Assembly: GCA_026026165.1 (NCBI GenBank)
Contig: JAPEUD010000026.1
Location: forward strand, 248,001 to 276,807
Source: Sarea resinae
Taxonomy: Eukaryota
Direction of reading: 5' to 3'
Length of the DNA stretch: 28,807 bases
Below are positions 6,226 to 28,724 of the stretch, piece by piece. Numbering within the stretch: the stretch's first letter is position 1; each line of letters opens with the position of its first letter. Made by a program: the position numbers and the translations under genes. Below the pieces are notes generated by a model. It searched no databases and was not told where the DNA came from. It saw only the letters and a list, made by a program, of their open reading frames with translations.

Positions 6226-9200
6226 CTATCGACATGTAGGACATCCGAGCCCCGATTCCCCTGGATCATTATGCGCACCGGAACCAACAGCAGTAGCGCT
6301 AGTGGTGGTGATGCTGGTAGTAGTCGGAGCTGTAATCGCACCGTCTGATGCCGCCACCCGTAGTGTCTCCAGACATCTGGTATGCACAACGTGGCCGCAC
6401 GCAAAGACGATCAAGGGGCCCAGATCTTCCATGGGCACGACGGCGTTACCTTCAGGGCCACCACCGAGCATCGCAGCTTCGTTCTCATCCTCCCCTGCGG
6501 TGCCATGGCCAAGATGCATGCCGCCGGCCTCGGCCATGATCGAGATTGGATCGCCTTCGACATCGCTGGTCGCCCTACCCTTTCCCCTCTCCAACGATCG
6601 AGACGACAGCCCTTGGGATTGTTGTATTCTTCTCCGTGCCTTTCTCTTCCGCTCCGCTTCCCGTCGTTTCTCCCAGGCGTGCCACTCGTTGCCACCCACG
6701 CCCGGCCCCCATACTTTCCGGTTGCAGCCTTCGCACGTCTGATCTCTTGCTCGCCAACCTCTTTGTCTGAGATCGGCGGCCTCCGTGACGTGTACAAAGA
6801 GGTCCTTATCGAGGAGTCGATTCGCCAGGGCAAGGATAGATTCTTCATACGCGTAAGCTGAGAAAATCGTCGCAAGGACGCCGCGGAGGTCCGAGAGCGA
6901 AGGGGATGAGAGAGAGGCCCGTGCCAAGAAGGCTTGGAGAATTCGAAGGAAGGAGAAGTCAGTGTGGACAGCCGTGCCATTTGGAGTGGCTTTAGGCGTG
7001 ATTTGAGATGTCGTCGCAAGCAGAGCGGTAAACGTCTGCTGAACAGCGGTCCGAAGCGAACCGGTGAGCTTTATTGATGGTGAGGATGGGGTATCTGCAT
7101 TGCTTCCCTCTGAGTCTGACTTTTGCTGGATCGCTGCCGAAGCATTCTTGGTGATGCCGACGACCGTGTCTATGAGATCAAGCCAAAGAAGCTCCTCGTT
7201 GGACATCTCTTGCTTTGCAGAAGACAATCCTTTGCCATGGTTTCCCGTTGATACGGTTTTAGATTTCAGAACCGTCTTCATGTGGTTTTGGCAAAGCCAG
7301 ATTCCCACCTGAGTATACTTGTGTATTGCCTCTGCAAGATCTTGAGCGCTCTCGTCGGCCTCTGCACGATTGCTGTCGCTGGTCTCCACACCAAGGACGC
7401 CCATCAATGCCGCTTCCAGCGTACCGAAATGCTGTATGAGCCGGTCCATGGCTTGCCTGACCTTCCCTTCCCTAGCCATGAGGACAACTGCGGCATCAAC
7501 TACTCCGGTGTTCTCTATAGCCGGAAGGACCTCCTCCAGTCTCAGATCTCCCGATTGCAGAAGGTTGATATAGTCAGCAACATGGGAACGATCATACTCA
7601 CACATCAATCGAACGTATTGCTCAACAAAGGCATGATTGGGTGTCTCGCGATCCGTACGGAAGACCCCAGAAGATTGATCTTCGGGTTCTAGAATGGTTC
7701 GAAGGTATTCGAATTGCGCACAAGGATTGTCACTGAGCGCATCCAACATGGTCTGATGCAGGTCTGGGGCGTAAGCGGCAATAGCCATTGCAGTCTTCGA
7801 AGTGTCGATATTTGCGAGTTCCCGAGCATTTTTGATGATTACAGAACGTACTTCACGGCTTTGTCGGTCATTGAGACCAGTGCGAGGTCGCAGGCAATCG
7901 CCAATGCACTCGAATATAGCTTGCTGATTATCGTGGTCGTCGAAATACGTCTGCAGTAAGTCGGCGTACCGTTTCTCCTCCTTGAACAAAGACTTCAGCA
8001 CCCTGTAAAACCCGGCATTTCGGAATCGTGGCACTAAAGAAGTAAGGTCCGGCGGATGGTACATCGACATCAGATACTCGACGCTGAGCTGGCAATCGTC
8101 GGCGATATCGATTGACGGATATTCGCAAAGGTCCAAGAGAACGCGATGCAAAGTCGTACCGGGCAGAAGAATAAATTGTGGAAATTTTGGTAGGTTCCGA
8201 GCAATAAACATCGCCAGGTATATCGTGTCTTCCGAGCCGAAATTCTGAGGTGACAGCACTTCTAGAAGAATGCTGACAATAAACTGACGATTCACCGATA
8301 GCCCAAAGACCTCGTCGTCTCCCAAGTCTCGTCGTGTCCCACCGTTGACCATACTTTCGCGTTCGCCGTTCAAAAAGCTGTCCTCAAATGCTTCGTTCAA
8401 AGCACTCAACAAGCTTGGTGCGTCAAATTGAAGTATCATTCGTAGATATGGAAATGAGGGCTCTGGCTCCTGGGCTGGTCGCGTAAGGACGGGCTTGCCG
8501 GACTCCTTTGGCCATGCGATTGTCCTTCCAGAGAACAGGAAGTAGTAAATTTGCGCCTTTCCCTTCGAGGCTTCGAGTTCTGGCAACGTCTCTCCGTTTG
8601 GATAAATACGGCTGGTCAATGCGTATGAGAGATATGGGAATATCTTCAAAGCATAAACAGACGAGTACGGTTCCTGTACCTTCTCTCCATTGACGGGCGT
8701 ATCTCGTGGGGGCGGGGGCTTGAGCAGAGAGAGTAGCTCAATGAGAGGGGTGATGTAATCTCCCATTGCTCGATTCCATACGTAGATCAATGCGTCATAC
8801 AATTTGTGCTTTCTGCACATCGTCGTAATCTGGTCAAGATCCATAGTTCTTGTGTCCAGATGGCAAATCATCTCTTCCATCCTTGCTTCAAGGCCTTTAG
8901 AAACATAGTGATTTATGAGATCCTTGATGACCGTCGGAGGAACAGATTGAATAGAAGAGTCCAAAATATAAGGCTCGAGAGCTTCGAGGAAGACGCCTGC
9001 CGACGAGCTGTCTGAATAGCGTTCGTAGACCTCGTCGAAAAGAAAATCAGTATCGTCCATGCTGATGCATGCCAGTAAACACGAAGCTGCCAGCTGATCC
9101 AGTTGGCGCTTCTCAGTCTGCCTTGCCCCTGCTCTGTCACCCGATCCAAAAACGTACTTAAGGGAGGCGGACATCATATCGATAAGCTTTTCCTGGACCA

Positions 9201-11254
9201 TAGAATGCCTATGCATATCATCTTCCGGTAGGCCGACGGTGAGTTTGTCGCCTTCACCTATGTAGTAAGCAGTCGCGAGCTCGATGGCGCCAACGTAGTC
9301 CCCCTCTTCCATGAGCGCAAGTAAACGATCAGCCCAATTAGACAATGTTCCCACCCAAATATCAAGAAAGCCCAATAGAAATATGCGGCCCTTGTAAGCC
9401 CTAAGACTCATATAGAAAGCATCAGCTACTGGTCCATTTCCGAAAGTATTATCAACATCGCCTTCGATATCGGGTGGCTGCAATTGTCTTGAGAACAGAT
9501 CTTGATGGAAAATTTGTCTTTGCATCAAGTCAAGGGACTCCGTCGTACGCATTGAGTTGTCCTCTAGTATGATGAGACGCTGCGTAATAGTAAGCACGGC
9601 AAGCACTGATCGACTTATCCACTGCACGGCTGCAATGGCTTCGTCGGCTCGCCATCGGCTTCGAGGATGGAATTGAAGGCTTGGTGGTCTATCTCTGTCC
9701 GCCGTCTCATGCGCTGATACATCGTTCACTTCCAGGACAGTAAGAATATTTGACCAACAGTAAACAAGCTTTGGCTTTGATACAGCCTCAGGCGCCGATG
9801 GATCTTTAAGCTTCAGTTTGACTGATGGAAACCAAGCGAGGCATCCGCTCATTGTGCTCTGTTCATTTATCTGTTTCGGTCGCGCGGCCTTGTGCTGCGT
9901 CTGCGCGATTGGAGTTGTTGAAACAATGACGAGAAGGTATGGTGTGAGCATGGCGACCAAACCTAGACTGTCAGTGGATTGCTCCGCGTTCCCCAAGGGT
10001 AATGGCGAAAAGGCTAGCACTGAGCTAGGCTTGCGAGGCCGGCTTATTGATGGCATATCACTTGGATAACGACCAAGAATACGGGTCGTTACCACCGTTC
10101 TACCAACAGCACCCAGACCTCTTGTCGCAAGGTGCGAAAATGCCATCCCCCTATTATCTGCTGAGACCAAAGCGGTTCGTCGGGTACCAAGGAATCCTAT
10201 ATGCAGAACTGCGGCCCCGAACACATGCCCATCATCCTTCCGGTCGAGTAATTGAGCCGAATCAATAGACGGAATATGCAAGAATGGCCGAGCAGATCGT
10301 GCGATTTCCCATGTAAAGATACTACCATTGACGTGGCCACCAGCTACAGTTGTGTGATCGGCTGATATTGCCAGCGATGTGATTGCCCCAGCCTCGACAG
10401 CTTTCCAAATTAGGTCCTGGTAACTTGCAAAGGGAGATTCTTCGACTTACCCTTTGTGCCTTGTCCAATGATAGACTTTAGAGTCTGATGGTAGTCAAAT
10501 ATTAAGATAATGCCCTTCGAAGTTCCCACGACAATGGAAGTTGATACGGAGATGCAAGAAGGTCGGCCAAAATTCCTTTTGCCCCCCTCGGAGAATGCTT
10601 GCCCGGATATCTTCCTGAGCCTCGTCCATCGCATAACCTCCCAAGGCGCCGGCGGGGTCTCAGCATCCCCCTGATCTCTGAAAAGTTGGCTTGAGAGAGA
10701 CGATTGCCGGGAATGAATATTCAAGAAAGCAGGGGAGAGTGCCCGCGGCGAATCCAACGGCGACAGAGAGAGGCGCGACTGGAACCGTCGATCGAAAGGC
10801 CGAAGGGATGGAGTTGGACTTTGGCGAGAAATAAAGGCACTGCTACTAGGAGTCGATGAAACAGAACCCTTTTATGATCAGTATGCGGCCTCCTTGATAG
10901 CATATGAATAGACCATACCTGACGTGAAGGAGTGTCGTCTGGTGTTGAAAAGGCCCCTTCCACACTCGGCGGCCTGTAAGAGCCCGGCTTTGGAGAATGT
11001 GCGGGCTCATCATCAATCGAGTCTTCCTCCGCGTTTTCTAACTTCCCATATCCGTGAAATGTGTCTCCATTGGTCTCCAATCCGGCTCCGTGGTTTCGCT
11101 CCTGCTCTTCCCGTAGCCACTCTACGAGCCTCGAGGGCTCTTCATCCGTACCAACATTGACACGTCCCGATTTGTCGTCATCCATCTCCCCGTGTTCTTC
11201 CAAGACCTCGTGGACATGGTTCCCCACTTCAGCCTGGTCTGGCGTGTGGCTCAT
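6226..11254 (-). CDS. VPS8: Vacuolar protein sorting protein 8 (CORVET subunit), ~1642 aa, 3 exons
   Basis: Exons 11254-10919, 10868-10451, 10400-6226. WD40-like N-terminal part (WEVMRWTRLRKI, GTSKGIILIFD, ITSLAISADHTTVAGGH), Vps8/CHCR region (LDQITTMCRKHKLYDALIYVWN..DYITPL) and a C-terminal RING-like motif (CEGC..CGHVVHTRC..CPTC). Confidence 0.93.
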
Positions 11255-15588: not shown

Positions 15589-18500
15589 ATGACTTCTGTA
15601 ATAAATGAGCAGCACCAGTGGAGTGCGCTGCGCGTGCGCCAGACTTTCCTGGATTATTTCAAGAACAATGGGCATACCTTTGGTGCGCGACTCTCCTCAT
15701 ATGACCCCGCACACTGCGACTGACCATGTCGAAATATCAGTCCCATCGTCGTCCGTCGTCCCTCTCTCCGATCCTACTCTTCTCTTTACCAACGCTGGCA
15801 TGAACCAGTACAAGTCCATCTTCCTGGGCACCGTGGACCCGCAATCCGACTTTGCGCAACTCAAGCGTGCCGTCAATTCGCAGAAAGTATGGCCCCCATC
15901 ACTGTGAATAAAGTGCAAAGCTAATTTGTGCTCAGTGTATCCGTGCAGGAGGCAAGCACAACGTGAGTTTGATATTCTTGTCGGCGCACGATGCAGTGAC
16001 TCACGTCTTATAGGACCTTGATGATGTTGGGAAAGACAGCTATCACCATGTGAGTATGGGCCGGGTCGATCAGATGCCAGACGGAGTATTGACAACTATA
16101 GACTTTCTTTGAGATGCTTGGAAACTGGAGTTTCGGGGACTATTTCAAGAAAGAGGCCATACAATTCTCTTGGGATTTGCTCACAAAGGTCTACGGACTG
16201 CAACCGGACCGGCTATACGTGACATATTTTGAAGGGAACGAAGCTGGAGGTCTCGAGCCTGATACCGAGTCGAAAGAGCTCTGGAAGGCGGTCGGTGTGG
16301 CTGACGATCACATCCTCCCGGGAAACATGAAGGATAACTTTTGGGAAATGGGCGATCAGGGTCCGTGTGGCCCTTGCAGCGAGGTTCACTACGACAGAAT
16401 AGGAGGCCGAAATGCCGCGCATCTTGTGAATCAGGATGATCCGAATGTTCTGGAGATTTGGAACAATGTGTTCATCCAGTACAATCGTGAGCCGGATAGG
16501 TCTCTGCAGCCATTACCGAACAAGCACGTTGATACTGGAATGGGTTTCGAGAGACTGGTGTCCGTTCTCCAAGACAAGATGTCCAATTATGATACGGATG
16601 TCTTCACGCCATTGTTCAAGACCATACAAGATATCACAGGTGCTCGCGAGTACCGGGGGAAGTTTGGTGATGAGGATCCGGATGGCATTGACACTGCTTA
16701 TCGGGTGGTGGCAGACCACGTCCGCACGCTCACTTTCGCTATTTCGGATGGGGGTTCCCCAAACAATGAAGGCCGAGGGTACGTCGTGCGCAGAATCCTC
16801 CGGAGAGGTGCTCGTTATGCGCGAAAATACTTCAACACGGACATAGGCACCTTCTTCTCGAGAATTGTCCCCACTCTGGTCCAGCAGATGGGTGACATGT
16901 TTCCGGAAATCAAGAAGAAAGAGGCCGACGTAAAAGAGATCCTTGATGAAGAAGAGGAGTCGTTCTCGAAGACGCTAGATCGGGGAGAGAGGATGTTCGA
17001 ACACTACGCTCAACAATGCAAGCTTCATGATACCAAAAACCTCCACGGTGCAGATGTGTGGCGCTTGTACGATACTTTCGGTTTCCCCGTGGATCTGACA
17101 CGACTAATGGCTGAGGAACGAGGACTGGATATCAATGAGAAGGAGTTCGAGGACGCCCAGGCCAAGGCAAAGGAAGCAAGTAGAGGCGAAAAGAAGGCTG
17201 CTTCTGACCTGGTGAAGCTTGATGTTCACGATCTTGGCAAGCTTGAGAAGATGAATGATGTCCCAAAGACAGATGATTCAACTAAGTTTGGTGAGTAGCT
17301 GGCCCAGCTGTGATTTGCCCTTGCATTTTTTTAACCGTCTTCTAGGAAAGGAGAACATCACGTCGCAGATTAGGGCTATCTACCATGCAAAGGACTTTCT
17401 CAAATCTACGGAGGAGATCCCAGAAGGGGAACAACTAGGACTCATACTCGACCGCACCAATTTCTATGCAGAGCAGGGTGGCCAGGAGTATGATACCGGC
17501 AAGATCCTGATCGACGGAGTTGCCGAGCTGGAGGTGCAGAACGTTCAAGTGTACGCTGGCTACGTCTTGCACACTGGCTTCATGAAATACGGCAAACTCT
17601 CTGTGGGCAACGAGGTGATTTGCGAATATGACGAAGTAGAATTCCCCTCCCAGCATCATTATCTAAAGAAAGCAATTACTGACTGCGCACGCGACAGCTC
17701 CGACGCTGGCCCATCCGAAACAACCATACGGGAACGCACATCCTCAACTTCGCGCTCCGCGAAGTCCTCGGTGACGGCATCGACCAAAAGGGCTCCCTTG
17801 TCGCCGCCGAAAAACTGCGCTTCGACTTCTCGCACAAAGCAGGGGTCTCGGACGCAGACCTTGCCAAGATCGAAGATATCTGCTCGGCTTACATCACGAA
17901 GAATGCAACTGTCTACGCCAAGGACGTGCCGCTCGCGACGGCGCGCGAGATCGAAGGCGTCCGCGCCGTCTTCGGTGAGACGTATCCGGATCCCGTGCGC
18001 GTTGTCTCCGTCGGGACGGACGTCGACACCATCCTCAAGGACGTCAAGAACCCGGCCTGGCACAAGCTCAGCCTCGAGTTCTGCGGCGGCACCCACGTGC
18101 AGAAGACGGGCGATATCAAGGCCCTAGTCATCATCGAGGAGAGCGGCATCGCCAAGGGTATCCGTCGCATCATCGCCGTCACGGGCGAGGAAGCCCACGC
18201 CGTTCAGCGCGTCGCCCAGGATTTCGCCGCGCACCTCGACAGGCTCGAAGCGATGCCGCACGGCGCGGAGAAAGAAGCGGCCGTCAAGTCGACGCAGACG
18301 CAGCTGAACGAGCTCGCCGTGTCCGCCATCACCAAGTCCTCCCTCCGGGACCGCTTCGGCAAGATCCACAAACAGGTGCTGGACGCGCAGAAGGCGAAGC
18401 AGAAGGCCGAGTCCAAGAAGGCCGTCGATGCCGTCGTGTCGTACTTTGCCGACCCGGCGCACAAGGACGCCTCGACGCTCGTCGTGCGGTTGCCGATCCC

Positions 18501-18813
18501 CGCCAACGCCAAGGCCGTCGGCGAGGCCCTGAACCACGTCAAGAGCAAGGCCAAGGATAAATCCGTCTACGTGTTCGCGGCCGACGACGAACCCGTGTCC
18601 GAAGATGCCCGCGTCGCGCACGGCTGCCATGTCTCCGAGGCCGCGGCCAAGAAGGGCGCCTCTGCTTCCGAGTGGGCCAAGGTCGTGTGCGGCTTCGTTG
18701 GCGGCAAGGCCGGCGGCAAGGCCCCGACGGCGATTGGGAATGGCACCGAGGTCTCCGAGGTCGACAAGGCGGTCGAGGCCGCGCGCAAGTATCTTGACGA
18801 TCTGAGCTTGTAG
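15409..18813 (+). CDS. ALA1: Alanine--tRNA ligase; cytosolic form from ATG 15589 (~965 aa), probable mitochondrial form from ATG 15409 (+60 aa); 7 exons
   Basis: Exons 15409/15589-15682, 15741-15886, 15936-15962, 16014-16049, 16102-17290, 17346-17635, 17698-18813. Motifs [54 protein letters not shown], editing motifs NHTGTH and EFCGGTH, C-Ala GGKAGG. Confidence 0.97.
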
Positions 18814-20731: not shown

Positions 20732-22163
20732 TCAGCCCGAGCCAGCTTCAAGTTGAGCAGGCGTGACAGATGAATTCGGAGCAGAAGGGACACCATCGCT
20801 AGAGGGTCCCTGACCATTCTCGGAATGGCGAGTGCGTCTGAGTCGACTAGGCACGCGAATCGAAGGCCAGCTCACGTTCCTAAACGGATTCGAGATTTGA
20901 GGCCGCCAGGAGCGGCGGGCGGTCACGTCAGATGAGGTGCCGGTGTAATTGCTGTGATGCTCAAGCTCTCGTCCTCTGGAAGCGTGACTGGCAGGTCCCC
21001 GGCCAGACCGCCCAGAAACTATCACCCTTGAGCCCCAGGGATATCGTCTTCCATTGATGAATGCGGCGGTTGGAGTTGCCAGCATAGGTCCCCGCGAACG
21101 GGAACGAGTCATGCCAACCACGCGTCGACCGGATCGGTTGGTATCATGAGCCGCGGCCGCTTCGCCCTCGGGGCGCGGCTTGGGTGTGTAATAATCTGCT
21201 TTGCACAGAGGACAGCAGGCTCGACGACTCGTTAACCAAGGATCCACACAGGCAGCATGGAATGCATGGCCACATGTAAGACCGCGAACATCGTTATCGT
21301 CATCCAAGGTGTCCAAGCAGATGGCGCATGTGTCCCCGGAGCTGTTGACCAGCTCCGGAGGGATCGCCGAATGGATATGTTCATCCTCCTCCTCTTCCTC
21401 ATCTTCCCCTTTGATGTCATCCGCTGGAGCCACGGTACTTGCCAGGGTGTCGGCCTTCTCCAGTTCTTCGACCACCGGCTCCTGTTCTTCGACTGTCATC
21501 TTGGAGAGTCGCTTATCCGAGTCTGCCGATGGCCCTTCTACCCCGGCTTCTATTTGCTTGATCGGATCTTCAGGTATCTCGTGAGCCGTAGAATCGTCAT
21601 CTCGAGTAGATGTTGCAACGACTGGCCGCGGGCCTTCATCGGAGCGGCGCAGGTCGCTGGTAGCTGAGATGATCCCATCTGCATCTCTGATGCTTCCCGG
21701 AGCACTTTCAGGAGCTATGATACCTCCTGCTGTCGACAAGCCTTCGCTCTCCCGAGAAGCTCTCCATGCTTTGTACTTGGTCGTTGGAAACCGCTCGTTC
21801 ACCTCATCCATCGTCATGAGCTTCTTCTCTCTCCTCCGTCGATGGGGTCGGGGCATTGTGGCCATGTCTATCGGTTGACCGTTCTCGGCATCCCTCAGCT
21901 GCTGGTTTCTTCGGTTGTATCTGTAGCAGTATTTGACGCCAACAATGATCCTGAAAGATACGCTTTAGCAGGAGGACCAGACGCGGCCATCAGACAGGGT
22001 CGCAAGCATACCATAGATTCGTAAATACAACACCAAATCCGAGAGCGACAAAGAATAACAACGGAGAATTGGTGCTGCCGTGGTGGCCGGAAGAGGTGGA
22101 CGTCTGGGTGGGCGCCGATGAGGTGGCCGACGGAGACGCCGTTGACGAAGGACTAGGATTCAT
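20732..22163 (-). CDS. Single-pass membrane RING-H2 E3 ubiquitin ligase, ~456 aa, 2 exons
   Basis: Exons 22163-22012 and 21950-20732; intron GTATGC..CAG. Ser/Thr-rich N-terminus, TM segment SPLLFFVALGFGVVFTNLWIIVGVKYC, RRRREKKLMTMDEVNERFP, RING-H2 CAIC..CGHAFHAAC..W..CPLC. Confidence 0.88.
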
Positions 22164-23158: not shown

Positions 23159-23302
23159 AGTTGGGACTTTGACCAAGTAAGATAGACTGAATATCATCTC
23201 TTCACCTTCTTCTCCTATTTGAAATTCCTTTACCTTACGAATCCTTTGTGCAATCCGTGTAGTTCCTATCATCATCTGTCGCACGGCCGGCAAAGCAACC
23301 TC

Positions 23303-24103
23303 ATGATCATTACCAGATTCATCTCGCTCCGAGCCAGCTTCACTAAAAGGCTGTTGAAATGGAATACTCGACAGACTTCCAGCACGTTAACCTCAGATGG
23401 ACCGAACAGCAACGATCGCTATGGAGTGTGTGATATCCTGGCCGAGAAAGGTATTTCAAGCGTTATCTGGTTTGAGGATCTTTTAGCACTTTACGGCAGC
23501 GATACTCAAGTATGGGATCTCAAACTCCTCGTACAAGACCCTCGAGAGGCAGCAAATGTCCTTCTCCACGCTGGCTACAAGGAAACATCACACCAGCTGC
23601 ACTTCGATGAGGACCCCGAGTCAAGCAAACGAGGTGTTCGCATGGCTGTCACGTCATCTGAGACTGGTGTTATGCTGCTCCCCACACGCGACTGGTATCA
23701 TACTATGGACGAGGAGAGCACACGGAAATATGTCCCTTCCCTTCACAGCTTCATCGATTCCATGATCGAATTCTGGCTTAATATTTCCTCCCGCGATTAT
23801 GTGGATAGGGTGGGTTTTGCGCTCTACATTGGCTGTCTGATCAACTACTGCTACGCTCTCAAGGACGAGAATGGCGAACCTGTCCGAGATCCTGCATACG
23901 CAAACAAGCTCAAACCTGAACACCGAGAGCTGCATTACGATATCGTTGCAGATTGCCCTAGGAAGGATAGCTTTACAACTACACAACAACACCAGTACCA
24001 TACTAGAAGGAGCAGAGAGATTAAAGAAGGCCTTTTCACACCTCAACCACATCAAAAAAAAGATGCGTTCCGGGCGCCTTTGCCACCACTTATAGAGCAC
24101 TGA
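23303..24103 (+). CDS. Intronless hypothetical protein (~266 aa) with a degenerate nucleotidyltransferase-like N-terminal motif
   Basis: Open frame from the first ATG (23303) to TGA. VIWFEDLLALYGSDTQVWDLKLLV..AANVL..AGY follows the strand-helix-YG-x6-D-strand pattern of minimal NTases. Basic, acid-free N-terminus. Confidence 0.72.
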   Translation: MIITRFISLRASFTKRLLKWNTRQTSSTLTSDGPNSNDRYGVCDILAEKGISSVIWFEDLLALYGSDTQVWDLKLLVQDPREAANVLLHAGYKETSHQLHFDEDPESSKRGVRMAVTSSETGVMLLPTRDWYHTMDEESTRKYVPSLHSFIDSMIEFWLNISSRDYVDRVGFALYIGCLINYCYALKDENGEPVRDPAYANKLKPEHRELHYDIVADCPRKDSFTTTQQHQYHTRRSREIKEGLFTPQPHQKKDAFRAPLPPLIEH

Positions 24104-25108: not shown

Positions 25109-25979
25109 GCTGGAACGACTTGTGATCGATTCGTCTTCGCAGAGCCACTAGCCTCCCGATAGTGAAGGTTCTGTATTGCAGAAAACTTTAGGACATTCTT
25201 TGAGCTCTTATAACGAGAGCCTGGTTCAGAAGATCGCTTGATATCCACAAGCGCTGGAGCTCTCATCCATGTGGTTCTGGTGGTCGAAGGAGTACTCGGG
25301 AATTTCCATGGGCTGAGATATCGGCTAACCACATTATTTCATTTGCCCATTTACTCCGTGCTCTGTACTCGCCGCAAGTGGATGATTTGATTGGTCAGTA
25401 GCCGCAGGTCTGTCCAGGGCTGTGTAACACCAAACACCCCAAGTCACAGCTCTCCCGAGTATTGATTTTTGACGCATCTTGGAATAATTATAACTCCAGC
25501 GCGAAGCCGTGCCAAGGGCCTTGGGCCAATAGATGTCAATTTCAGTCATGTTTCATGACCGGCGACAATTCCTTCCAAACATCGCTCAGAATGGGTGATA
25601 ACAATGGTTTCGACTCAGCCCTTTCAATATCATCATATGACGGCGCTATAAACAGCCAATCGTAGCCAGGAAGCTTGCGCGGCGTCAGCACATGTTTGAA
25701 CCTAATCAACAGCGCCTAATCCTGGTTTCTTTACTCTGCTTTCGCTATGCACCTTTATCGAAGAGGAGAAAAGTTGCATGAGTCTCAAGATGGTAGGTTG
25801 ATGAGAAGACTGGCCTACTATATGTACCGCTTCCTCTGACTCTCGTTGCGAGCTGCTCTGCGCCCTCTGTAATACCAACTCCTTTCTATCGACATCGAGT
25901 ACTTTGTTCGTTCCTTACAGTTCCGTCTCCGCGATCACTGCTGAGTCTTGTATTGTGAATTGTCCCCATCATATCTATC

Positions 25980-26888
25980 ATGGGTTGCGGCAGCTCCAAG
26001 CAAGCTGACAGCAGGCCTGCGTCCGCAAGGCCTGTACCTTCACGGCGAGCCCACCCTGTAGAGTTGCAGCACATGGGAGCAGCATCTACCAGCGGCACAC
26101 AAACAAATCCAGAGCGAACTGGCAAGCCGATGAGCCCAAAGGTAAGGGCTGAACTTCTCAATGCCACCCACAGGGCATTTGGAGATCTGGACTACTGTGT
26201 CATTGGAGGATGCGCGCTCGCTGAATACGGCAATCAGCGGGGAACGTCAGATTTAGATGTCATGGTTCCGCATGAGATATCGGAGGTTGTCACCGGCCAA
26301 TTGCTTTCTCATGGAATAGTGCGAACGGCTCGGGGTGGACTTGGGTAAGTGGCATCATCTCTATCACCCATCAGCTCCATCAGTGATCGTTGCGATATCT
26401 ATTTCTTTGCTGTTTTCAAACCCCTTTTTTTGTGATCCCAAGCCGTCAAGAAGGGATTGCTTACAAACTTTAGCTACATCGCCTCCAACGGTCAATGTTA
26501 CGGACTCGACATCACGACAGACCGAGCAGTTGGGCAAAGATTCCCCAACACTCAACAGGTATCAGGCACTACGGCTCGACTGATGCCTATCCGATCCCTC
26601 TTAAATTCCAAAGCCTACTCCTACATGACTCGGGCAGGGTCCGACGCGTCCGTGAAGAAGTCTAGCGACGCCCAGGACATCCTCTTCATTGTCAACAACA
26701 TGCGGATGAACAATCTCGTCACCAACCGGAACGAATGTCCCTGGGTCGTCGATTACGACTTCTGGACCGAGTTCTGCCAGAGGTACCCAAGGGCGGAAAA
26801 TGATTTTCGGTCTCTAGGCTTGCAAAGAGATGCAACGCCAAATTCCAGTCATCGATCAAGCAGGAGTCGGGCAAGTAGTCGGACTTGA
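25980..26888 (+). CDS. Minimal (AbiEii/MenT-like, pol-beta fold) nucleotidyltransferase, ~259 aa, 2 exons, N-terminal MGCGSSK
   Basis: Exons 25980-26344 and 26474-26888; intron GTAAGT..GCTTAC..TAG restores the frame. Motif VIGGCALAEYGNQRGTSDLDVMV (GG + DxD), a third Asp in GLDI, and C-terminal LLNSK..R..K..DAQDI. Confidence 0.8.
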
Positions 26889-27425: not shown

Positions 27426-28724
27426 ATGGCTGAATCAGGGACGCCCGTGGCGCCATCGTCCACGAATCCAATCGTCTTCTTCGACGTCGCGCTTGGAGGT
27501 ACGTCGATATCAATCAATCTCCCGGCCCCCGTTCATGGCCCCCTCTTCATAGAGCCCAACAGCAAGGCCATGATTGTTATGCTCTTCCTTGTCTTGAGTC
27601 CTTTCACCCTTTTACGATCGTGCTTGCGTCTTTACTCCAGCGGCTGCTTCTTTCTTGATCACGTGATTATCAAAGCCCTGAACCCCCCAGCCCTCACATC
27701 CATTTCCGTTCCATTCTCCTTTTCATCATCACTATGCAGCCAGCTAGTTCTCTATATATTACCTGCTTTCATTTTTATACAGCCCCTCTCTTTACGCTAC
27801 CTTTGTATCGCCTTACCCTACACCGTCCTGACCAACAAACACTCTACCCTCAATCCTTTCAAGCCTTTACGTTTCCCCTTCCCCCCAAGCCTACTGCATC
27901 CCGCTCTTCTAACCACAAAGTAACAGGCGAGCCGCTCGGCCGCATAAAGATGGAGCTATTCTCCTCGATCGTGCCGCGCACCGCCGAGAACTTCCGCCAA
28001 TTCTGCACCGGGGAGACGAGATCGCCACTCGGGCGACCACAGGGGTATAAGGGGAGCAAATTCCACCGCGTCGTAAGGCCCCTCTATCCCTCCTCTCCTC
28101 TCCTCTCCTCTCCTCTCCTCTCCTCTCCTCTCCCCCCTCTACACACCCTATCCCTCCTCTTCATCGCCCGAAGCTCTCTTTTCTATCCTCTTCTCAGCAA
28201 AACTAACCACAAGGCCCACGGACCGGGGGGCGCGCGGAAACCCAGATCAAAGACTTCATGATCCAGGGCGGCGATTTCCTGAACGGCGACGGCACGGGCT
28301 CGACCTCGATCTACGGCACCAAGAGCTTCGCGGACGAGAACTTCACCCTGAAGCATGACCGCCCGGGCCTACTCTCCATGGCCGTAGGTCCCACCCCCTT
28401 ACCCCTTTCCCCCTTGTCCCCTCCCCCCCCGGAAACTCTCGCACATCCTCCCTTCCCTCCCTCCCATCCCATCCCACCAACATGATTCACCGACTAAGTC
28501 GCTCAATCCAGAACTCGGGCCCCAACACCAACGGCTCCCAGTTCTTCATCACGACAGTGCCGACGCCCTTCCTGAACAACAAACACGTCGTCTTTGGCGC
28601 GGTGCTGACCGACGACGCCGACGGCGGCGCCAGCATGGACGTGGTGCGCAAGATCGAGAACGTGCGGACCAACCGCGAGAAGCCCGCCATGGATGTCGTC
28701 ATCACCATGTGTGGCGAGATGTAA
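27426..28724 (+). CDS. PPIH: Peptidyl-prolyl cis-trans isomerase H (U4/U6 snRNP cyclophilin), ~189 aa, 4 exons
   Basis: Exons 27426-27498, 27927-28072, 28246-28383, 28512-28724. [62 protein letters not shown] in LNNKHVVFG context, and a C-terminal CGEM typical of CypH. Confidence 0.93.
27570..27681 (+). ncRNA. Possible intronic box C/D snoRNA in PPIH intron 1 (tentative)
   Basis: C-like ATGATTG (27570), D'-like TTGA (27655), C'-like GTGATTA (27663) and D box CTGA (27678) lie in the expected order inside a 428-nt intron. The C box is non-canonical and no target was identified. Confidence 0.3.
28093..28133. repeat. (CTCTC)n pentanucleotide repeat in PPIH intron 2
   Basis: ctctcctctcctctcctctc... 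about 8 units. Confidence 0.9.

Follow-up and report, generated by a model that had tools for sequence, protein, structure and literature searches.

In a stretch of 28,807 nucleotides from the fungus Sarea resinae (assembly GCA_026026165.1, contig JAPEUD010000026.1, positions 248,001 to 276,807; this whole stretch is called the window below), a gene at positions 25,980 to 26,888 encodes a protein that we read as a membrane-tethered nucleotidyltransferase (NTase). According to this interpretation, which we consider about 62% probable, the gene is real and spliced, its product is a two-lobed NTase of the DUF1814 superfamily (AbiEii/MenT/Pb27-like) carried on a disordered tether of ca. 40 residues, its start MGCGSSK is a dual-acylation signal, and the enzyme works along the lines proposed further below. 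The superfamily has been described as uniting AbiEii and MenT1-4 with Pb27, ANT(2'')-Ia, and JHP933 (10.64898/2026.01.19.700257). Its NTases have been studied almost only as bacterial toxins and fungal members have been mentioned in passing, e.g., in the statement that DUF1814 proteins occur in fungi (PMC11375011). The Pezizomycotina branch that includes the Sarea protein keeps the whole MenT-type active site together with the regulatory phospho-acceptor threonine, has gained a conserved lipidation-type leader that sits on a flexible tether, and its gene travels with an uncharacterised metallophosphoesterase (MPE) gene across five ascomycete genera. An AbiEii/MenT relative linked to a phosphoesterase gene points to an unstudied two-gene system in fungi. 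The locus thus bears on which bacterial toxin and immune modules eukaryotes kept and re-wired, and for a eukaryotic MenT-like enzyme it opens the questions of where it acts, what its target is, and how it is restrained. A limited literature search on lipidation leaders of DUF1814 NTases found no description of one; the linkage of NTase and phosphoesterase lay outside that search.

The NTase gene consists of two exons on the + strand (Table 1), and its spliced product of 259 amino acids is identical, letter for letter, to a deposited protein, "MAG: hypothetical protein M1819_002893 [Sarea resinae]" (P0003 in our data set). Translation is predicted to start at the first in-frame ATG (25980), which has A at -3 and G at +4 and follows an in-frame TGA (25956-25958) at a distance of 21 nt. 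Exon 1 opens as MGCGSSKQADSRP (MGCGSSK...) and later reads VIGGCALAEYGNQRGTSDLDVMV, and excision of the intron joins GG and C to the codon of Gly122, from which the frame reads on as YIASNGQCYGLDITTD until the TGA at 26886-26888. The list of open reading frames (ORFs) splits the gene into 25980-26348 and 26583-26888, and intron retention would terminate the protein at the in-frame TAA at 26346-26348.

As far as sequence comparison can show, the intron is genuine. The metagenome homologues L001/L002 (GTAAGT...TTTAG) and L003/L005 (GTACGT...TTCAG) carry an intron in the same Gly codon and the same phase, and of the 112 non-self hits of an exhaustive HMMER search, 40 have an end point within query residues 121-127 (14 their start, 26 their end), as expected of single-ORF gene callers on intron-bearing DNA. 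The homologue P0119 has a 17-residue insertion exactly at the intron site, several full-length homologues align without a break across the exon junction, and the model of the protein by AlphaFold2 (AF2) has a predicted local distance difference test score (pLDDT) of 97 there. A preliminary description of this DNA had joined the two ORF halves through a 129-nt intron and placed a GG motif at 26205-26210 and a DxD motif (the DLD codons) at 26250-26258. All these coordinates are correct, and the deposited protein as well as the conserved position and phase support the intron. Conservation in relatives places the features of the gene beyond chance. Bacterial contamination or recent transfer was considered as an origin and rejected in view of the conserved spliceosomal intron and of neighbours typical of a fungal chromosome.

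Fold and active site

While a single-sequence AF2 prediction was uninformative (pLDDT 34), the prediction with 134 aligned sequences reached a mean pLDDT of 87.7 and a predicted TM-score of 0.80, with residues 41-240 at about 97. In this model, residues 41-240 form a two-lobed NTase of the DNA polymerase beta (pol-beta) type with a folded core of ca. 190 residues. By structure (Z-scores from VIA-align, E-values from Foldseek), the best match is the Paracoccidioides antigen Pb27 (5UVD; Z 17.8, root-mean-square deviation 2.9 over 186 residues, E 3.5e-9), followed by MenT1 (Z 14.2, E 1.5e-4), MenT3/TglT (Z 12.2-12.6), ANT(2'')-Ia (Z 11.3-11.7), TM1012 (Z 11.4), JHP933 (Z 11.0), the AbiEi C-terminal domain (Z 10.3), MenT4 (Z 10.1), and LnuA (Z 10.0). 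DNA polymerase beta itself has Z 8.4, clearly below the two-lobed MenT1, MenT3, JHP933, and MenT4 (Z 14.2-10.1). A profile of 34 full-length homologues finds the same relatives from sequence, with E-values of 8.2e-10 for 5UVD, 3e-5 for MenT1, and 0.0047 for JHP933 (4OK0). A pol-beta fold had been named beforehand as the test of the NTase assignment, and it emerges from the AF2 model, the structure matches, and the profile matches alike.

The exhaustive search recovered 113 representatives of clusters at 50% identity at E<=1e-3, 56 of them at E<=1e-10. The named relatives all belong to the Pezizomycotina (Botrytis, Sclerophora, Oidiodendron, Endocarpon, Byssothecium, Cephalotrichum, Purpureocillium, Niveomyces, Geoglossum, and Diaporthe) and nearly all are annotated as hypothetical, while one UniRef name within the family reads "AbiEii/AbiGii toxin family protein". 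Among the 134 relatives, 4 match AbiEii (PF08843) and 9 match DUF6036 in Pfam at E<0.01, and the neighbours in the ESM Atlas comprise DUF6036, AbiEii, and Aminoglyc_resit clusters besides fungal ones. P0003 itself has no match to PF08843 at E up to 10, so we file it as a relative within the superfamily and not as a member of the Pfam family; a phmmer search of P0003 against the PDB gave one chance-level match only.

The preliminary description had called the protein a bacterial-toxin-like minimal NTase. Its kinship with AbiEii/DUF1814 stands, while the term "minimal" does not fit a two-lobed core of ca. 190 residues with motifs III and IV in a C-terminal helical lobe. The minimal NTases of the HEPN-MNT type are single small NTase domains without a C-terminal catalytic lobe and are paired with HEPN. 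This type was rejected for the Sarea protein, whose core (residues 41-240) has a helical lobe holding K168 and D190; library scans of the window proteins gave no HEPN match on the neighbouring genes.

The DUF1814 motifs I-IV have been defined by Dy et al. (PMC3985639), and Yu et al. also give these motifs together with motif 2a of the form h[DE]h (PMC7205606). Judging by sequence and model, the Sarea residues G76/G77, R87, D91, D93, D134, K168, R175, D187, and D190 form a complete site (Table 1). Motif II holds the DUF1814-specific Arg, the Thr that is the counterpart of the phospho-acceptors MenT1 T39 and MenT3 S78, and two metal-binding Asp, and the D134 of motif 2a is invariant among close homologues. 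In motif III, the Lys, the aromatic Y172, and the Arg are kept in register with Ser, not Ala, at position 4; in motif IV, of the +DxxD type, the residue before D187 is S186 and the basic K183/K184 are displaced 3-4 positions upstream. The 34 full-length homologues show no exception at G76, G77, D93, K168, and D190, and at least 90% of them retain R87 and T89. The profile alignment sets T89, D91, K168, and D190 opposite T39, D41, K137, and D152 of MenT1, where motif II reads R-F-T39-R-D41-V-D; these four are the residues mutated in that toxin (PMC11375011). The apparent retention of T89 across the fungal family is notable because the Thr/Ser of MenT1 and MenT3 is reported as an auto-phosphorylation site that switches the toxin off and is dispensable for toxicity (PMC11375011, PMC7205606). 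As a separate observation, the deposited Botrytis galanthina model (P0004) is without the motif II stretch (the equivalent of RGTSDLDVMVPH; alignment A3, columns 120-140), owing to either a mis-called intron or a real loss.

Among known proteins, Pb27 of Paracoccidioides brasiliensis (PDB 5UVD, "antigenic nucleotidyltransferase-like protein") is the closest by both structure and profile; it likewise comes from a fungus, shares the two-lobed core, and within the aligned stretch retains both GG and R-x-T-x-D-x-D. However, identity is only 18% and the crystallised chain has neither an N-terminal acylation leader nor a linker. Pb27 has been studied as an antigen (PMC7913102). The DUF1814 toxins MenT1 (Rv0078A; PDB 8AN4, 8AN5, 8RR5) and MenT3/TglT (Rv1045) resemble the Sarea NTase in fold, profile match, and active-site residues, and the spacing from GG to DxD is 13 residues in both aligned stretches of MenT1 and the Sarea protein. 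In contrast to it, these toxins come from bacteria, lack both a lipid anchor and a linker, and have as partners MenA antitoxins described as inducing auto-phosphorylation (PMC11375011), whereas the Sarea NTase, known here from sequence and model, lies beside an MPE. AbiEii (PF08843), the abortive-infection toxin of Streptococcus and Lactococcus, shares motifs I-IV as defined by Dy et al. (PMC3985639) but has a 15-residue spacer, while the Sarea gene is eukaryotic, bears an intron, and has no AbiEi partner. ANT(2'')-Ia, LnuA, and JHP933 fall into the same fold class (Z 10-11.7), yet they are more distant than MenT1, are missed by the sequence profile except for JHP933, and are small-molecule enzymes or of unassigned function.

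Lipidation-type leader and linked metallophosphoesterase

Ahead of the folded core, the Sarea NTase carries the heptapeptide MGCGSSK and a linker that varies in sequence and length among homologues. Order in the AF2 model begins at about residue 41 with low pLDDT before it (Table 1), as the preliminary description had anticipated when it placed a disordered linker behind MGCGSSK. The heptapeptide satisfies the myristoylation consensus Met1-Gly2-x-x-x-Ser/Thr6, and Cys3 adjoins Gly2 as a candidate palmitate acceptor. Both the consensus and the MGC dual-lipidation start of the Gpa1 type are described in work on yeast Gpa1, whose G2A and C3A mutants lose membrane targeting (PMC3724820). Gpa1 and G-alpha-i (MGCTVS) share Met1-Gly2-Cys3-x-x-Ser6 with the Sarea protein (PMC3724820), but there the signal sits on G-alpha subunits and not on a DUF1814 NTase.

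A survey of starts covered 134 family proteins; the GG motif is present in 83, and in 49 of these it is preceded by 45 residues or more. These 49 extended homologues start with MG in 20 cases, with MC in 12 (mostly followed by F, W, or L), and otherwise in 17. In the neighbouring MPE family, which served as a control from similar sources, the counts are 1/120 for MG and 2/120 for MC, i.e., 3/120 as compared with 32/49 in the NTase family, where the starts are not independent of each other since family members share ancestry. For scoring we used a PROSITE-type myristoylation pattern, and MGCGSSK fits it as do 15 of the 20 MG-starting relatives; Cys lies within positions 3-6 in 16 of these 20. 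In a quick tree, both MG and MC starts turn up in every clade and do not cluster; proteins with an MC start may be variants that carry palmitate only. In the Sclerophora homologue, MGCGSSK is unchanged though the linker differs. In L001, MGCFCSK directly follows an in-frame stop and precedes, in the same frame, the internal Met that was annotated as the start of the Oidiodendron protein, which suggests that the choice of start in annotation accounts for many of the short forms. The region between the NTase gene and its neighbour (25109-25979) is not conserved with L003 except for a 15-nt block, ATCTATCATGGGTTG, across the start codon, the sole intergenic stretch that the two have in common (E 5e-4). 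The consensus fit and the excess of MG/MC starts uphold the dual-acylation-type signal that the preliminary description had proposed, the motif being conserved among relatives, and we think it quite probable, going by these comparisons, that N-myristoylation together with palmitoylation tethers the Sarea NTase to the cytosolic face of a membrane.

Divergently from the NTase gene lies a gene for an MPE of 304 amino acids (Table 1), whose metal-binding motifs are all invariant among 35 homologues. The preliminary description of the locus was right about the NTase features but had overlooked this conserved neighbour. The pair is adjacent and divergent in L003 as in the window (MPE at 1-645, 62% identity, E 4e-92), and adjacent on the same strand in L001/L002 (MPE at 314-720 of L002) and in L004 (MPE at 453-1275). 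The two genes are also adjacent in Sclerophora amabilis (MPE M1837_005227, NTase M1837_005228), Endocarpon pusillum (EPUS_05251 and EPUS_05250), and Cephalotrichum gorgonifer (SPO03944.1 and SPO03945.1), and they lie one gene apart in Botrytis galanthina (BGAL_0126g00250 and BGAL_0126g00230). The MPE is thus found next to or one gene from the NTase, in varying orientation, in five ascomycete genera including Sarea and in three metagenome contig types; the five genera belong to five classes of Pezizomycotina. A further five pairs of MPE and NTase hits agree in the length of their longest contig. Broad synteny was considered as a cause of this linkage and rejected, given that none of the other window neighbours was found in the short flanks (0.7-1.5 kb) of L001-L005, to which the comparison was confined.

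With 1708 proteins at E<=1e-10 (word-index search, 90%-identity clusters) as compared with the 113 NTase representatives, the MPE family far exceeds the NTase family in size, though the two numbers come from different tools, databases, and cut-offs. For the MPE, neither sequence nor profile searches found a solved relative at E up to 0.01, and its NCBIfam match was at chance level only. In library scans of the window proteins, no AbiEi- or MenA-like antitoxin gene was seen beside the NTase, whose neighbours are the MPE, a gene of no known family that we call gene X, and a cyclophilin gene. The linkage suggests functional coupling of MPE and NTase, and for a coupling of any kind we would put the chances at about even.

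Proposed working and competing readings

In the working that we propose, the initiator Met would be removed, Gly2 N-myristoylated, and Cys3 S-palmitoylated, and the enzyme would hang from the cytosolic membrane face. As family knowledge implies, its site would bind a nucleoside triphosphate and Mg in a two-metal arrangement and move the nucleoside monophosphate onto an acceptor hydroxyl. By analogy with the MenT toxins, the single most likely acceptor would be a tRNA-like RNA 3' end, a choice that we rate at somewhat less than even odds. MenT1, MenT3, and MenT4 are described as modifying tRNA 3' ends, extending CCA (10.64898/2026.01.19.700257). T89 may, again by analogy, serve as an inhibitory auto-phosphorylation switch, and the MPE would be the likely functional partner, either resetting T89 as a phosphatase or erasing the product of the NTase. 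For the bacterial system, Yu et al. have postulated an unidentified phosphatase (PMC7205606).

Several observations weigh against this picture of an anchored, active enzyme with the MPE as its partner. Neither the whole of P0003 nor its ORF halves reached a Pfam, NCBIfam, or PADLOC threshold. The substrate is argued by similarity only: the closest relative, Pb27, is without a known activity, and the ANT(2'')/Lnu relatives act on small molecules. The Geoglossum NTase homologue does not lie beside the Geoglossum MPE. Some copies are decayed, including those in L001 (1068-1926) and L002 (1501-2359), which keep the MGCFCSK leader and have D91 changed to G and D134 to Y, and L004 holds an exon-2 remnant with a premature stop (1501-1887) directly after its MPE gene. 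As for the leader, the start counts are tempered by the shared ancestry mentioned above, 17 of the 49 extended homologues have neither MG nor MC, 5 of the 20 sequences with MG do not fit the consensus pattern, and the annotated Oidiodendron (P0117) and Byssothecium (P0120) proteins start at the equivalent of Met51. Finally, the organism of L003/L005 has its MGCG leader ORF and its domain ORF in different frames.

The last of these points comes from L003 (1383-1530) and L005 (478-625), where an ORF for a leader of the form MGCGPSRP... has the same ATCTATCATGGGTTG start context as the window but another frame than the NTase domain ORF. The sequence is identical in these two independent assemblies (0 mismatches in 799 nt), and the shift in frame may represent either a true frameshift, by which the anchor is uncoupled, or an unusual joint. 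M51 (26130-26132), the first residue of the folded domain, is Met in 63 of 89 aligned sequences, a count inflated by gene calls that begin at this very Met, and Leu or Ile in most others. It may have a structural role or give rise to a second, anchor-less isoform by internal initiation.

These features of the leader also bear on a soluble, cytosolic NTase in which the MGC would not be acylated, or the effective start would be the conserved Met51, and the N-terminal region would have no anchoring role. Besides the M51 column, the out-of-frame leader, and the short Oidiodendron and Byssothecium proteins, many metagenome gene calls begin at the M51 equivalent, and the Pb27 chain in the crystal lacks such an extension, its residue 2 being aligned with residue 49 of the model. 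However, the excess of MG/MC starts over the control, the identity of MGCGSSK in Sclerophora despite a diverged linker, and the conserved nucleotide block across the start codon speak for a leader that matters, and in L001, the DNA most closely related to the short Oidiodendron protein, MGCFCSK stands in frame upstream of the same internal Met. We therefore think a soluble enzyme unlikely.

The decayed copies and the Botrytis galanthina model without its motif II stretch would suit a catalytically dead scaffold or a decaying gene that keeps only the fold, given that L001/L002 have lost two carboxylates and L004 is a remnant. In the Sarea protein, however, every motif residue is retained, its ORF is intact with canonical splice sites, and conservation at most catalytic columns is 85-97% family-wide, which makes a dead protein very improbable.

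If the Sarea NTase is anchored and active, its acceptor might still be a small molecule. An enzyme resembling ANT(2'')-Ia or Lnu could inactivate an incoming antibiotic or xenobiotic at the membrane or modify a lipid or metabolite, and not RNA. The structural likeness to ANT(2'')-Ia and LnuA is consistent with such a role, as is a sub-threshold Pfam match of exon 1 to Aminoglyc_resit, the ANT(2'')-Ia family PF10706 (E 0.16, 12.5 bits against a cut-off of 21; no match with the full protein). ESM Atlas neighbours include clusters with 32-40% Aminoglyc_resit members, and a position at the membrane would suit the interception of an imported compound. However, MenT1 is closer by both structure (Z 14.2) and profile (E 3e-5), and no ANT or Lnu chain appeared in the profile search at E up to 10. 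Likewise, the conserved pair Thr89/Arg87 has its documented counterpart in the MenT/TglT toxins (PMC11375011, PMC7205606), to which this comparison was confined. Altogether, a small-molecule enzyme seems to us no likelier than a soluble one.

The preliminary description had favoured a membrane protein or a second messenger over RNA as target, a preference for which we found no backing result; the nearest characterised relatives, MenT1/3/4, modify tRNA 3' ends. A tethered NTase of this kind would nucleotidylate a membrane protein in an AMPylation-like manner or make a local nucleotide second messenger that the neighbouring phosphoesterase degrades. The membrane signal at the N-terminus would fit, the conserved MPE could be the phosphodiesterase for a nucleotide signal, and Dy et al. 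left protein, nucleotide, and small-molecule targets open for DUF1814 (PMC3985639). On the other hand, CD-NTase and OAS-type chains match weakly (Foldseek E 0.02-0.04 for CdnE), no solved phosphodiesterase resembles the MPE detectably in sequence, and the acceptor described for MenT1, MenT3, and MenT4 is tRNA (10.64898/2026.01.19.700257). We regard such targets as somewhat less likely still than a small molecule.

Going beyond the lipid-anchored RNA-directed NTase, one can speculate that the Pezizomycotina hold a eukaryotic descendant of AbiEii/MenT as a module of two, perhaps three, genes. The lipid-anchored NTase would block translation via tRNA or RNA 3' ends or mark another target at the membrane, and the linked MPE would be its antidote or switch that takes the inhibitory phosphate off the conserved Thr of the active site or erases the modification. 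We hold this to be a long shot; if true, the NTase-MPE module could have a part in fungal cell-autonomous defence, allorecognition, or stress-induced growth arrest.

Tail, gene X, and surroundings

Table 1. Positions of the NTase gene, its motifs, and adjoining features in the window
Feature	Position	Strand	Remarks
Gene X, open frame	23186..24103	+	First ATG 23303; no known family
MPE gene, 304 aa	24194..25108	-	Pfam Metallophos E 1.3e-6; DxH / GD / GNHE / H / GHxH intact
Region between the divergent MPE and NTase genes	25109..25979	.	Presumed shared promoter region
NTase exon 1	25980..26344	+	Residues 1-121 plus first two bases of Gly122 codon
Codons 1-7, MGCGSSK	25980..26000	+	Predicted N-myristoylation (Gly2, Ser6, Lys7) and palmitoylation (Cys3) site
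Disordered Pro/Ser/Arg-rich linker, residues 8-40	26001..26099	+	AF2 pLDDT 44-54 over residues 1-40
Motif I, G76-G77 of hG[G/S] (I75-G76-G77)	26205..26210	+	G76 91/94, G77 81/94
Motif II, R87-G-T89-S-D91-L-D93	26238..26258	+	R87 85/96, T89 84/95, D91 76/95, D93 88/96
Spliceosomal intron	26345..26473	+	129 nt, phase 2, GTAAGT...TTTAG
NTase exon 2	26474..26888	+	Last base of Gly122 codon, residues 123-259, stop TGA 26886-26888
Motif 2a, L133-D134-I135, third carboxylate on beta-strand	26505..26513	+	D134: D in 58/82, E in 6; modelled strand 130-137
Motif III, K168-A-Y-S-Y-M-T-R175 (KLxAaxxR type)	26610..26633	+	K168 85/90, R175 69/87
Motif IV, D187-A-Q-D190 (DxxD)	26667..26678	+	D187 80/88, D190 85/88
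Ser/Arg-rich C-terminal tail, residues 241-259	26829..26885	+	Close subfamily shares TPxxSxR core

The C-terminal tail of the NTase is rich in Arg and Ser, as had been described before, with Ser or Arg at 11 of the last 17 residues. In 8 close homologues T243, P244, S247, and R249 are invariant within a core GLQRDxTPSxSNRxS, while distant subfamilies end right after the conserved GL and many distant members have no tail. It resembles tails that are phosphorylated or bind RNA.

On the far side of the MPE lies gene X, which is 47% identical to Endocarpon GJ744_004833 (P0257; E 8.6e-69). P0257 is equal to the C-terminal half of the fused model EPUS_05251; GJ744_004833 lies on the far side of the MPE, too, and the gene order X-MPE-NTase is common to Sarea and Endocarpon pusillum. 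Gene X had no match in Pfam and none against the PDB. With the NTase family it gave a weak colinear alignment (hhalign probability 3.6%, E 0.012), which makes a degenerate NTase-like fold only a lead. Endocarpon GJ744_004833 starts with MGNKASK, a myristoylation-type sequence; for Sarea gene X there is no MG start within ca. 500 nt upstream.

Elsewhere in the window, Vps8 is encoded at 6226-10446 (-), an alanyl-tRNA synthetase that is split by an intron or frame change at 16102-18813 (+), a RING-finger protein at 20732-21964 (-), and a cyclophilin at 27659-28261 (+). These are kinds of genes expected on a fungal chromosome.

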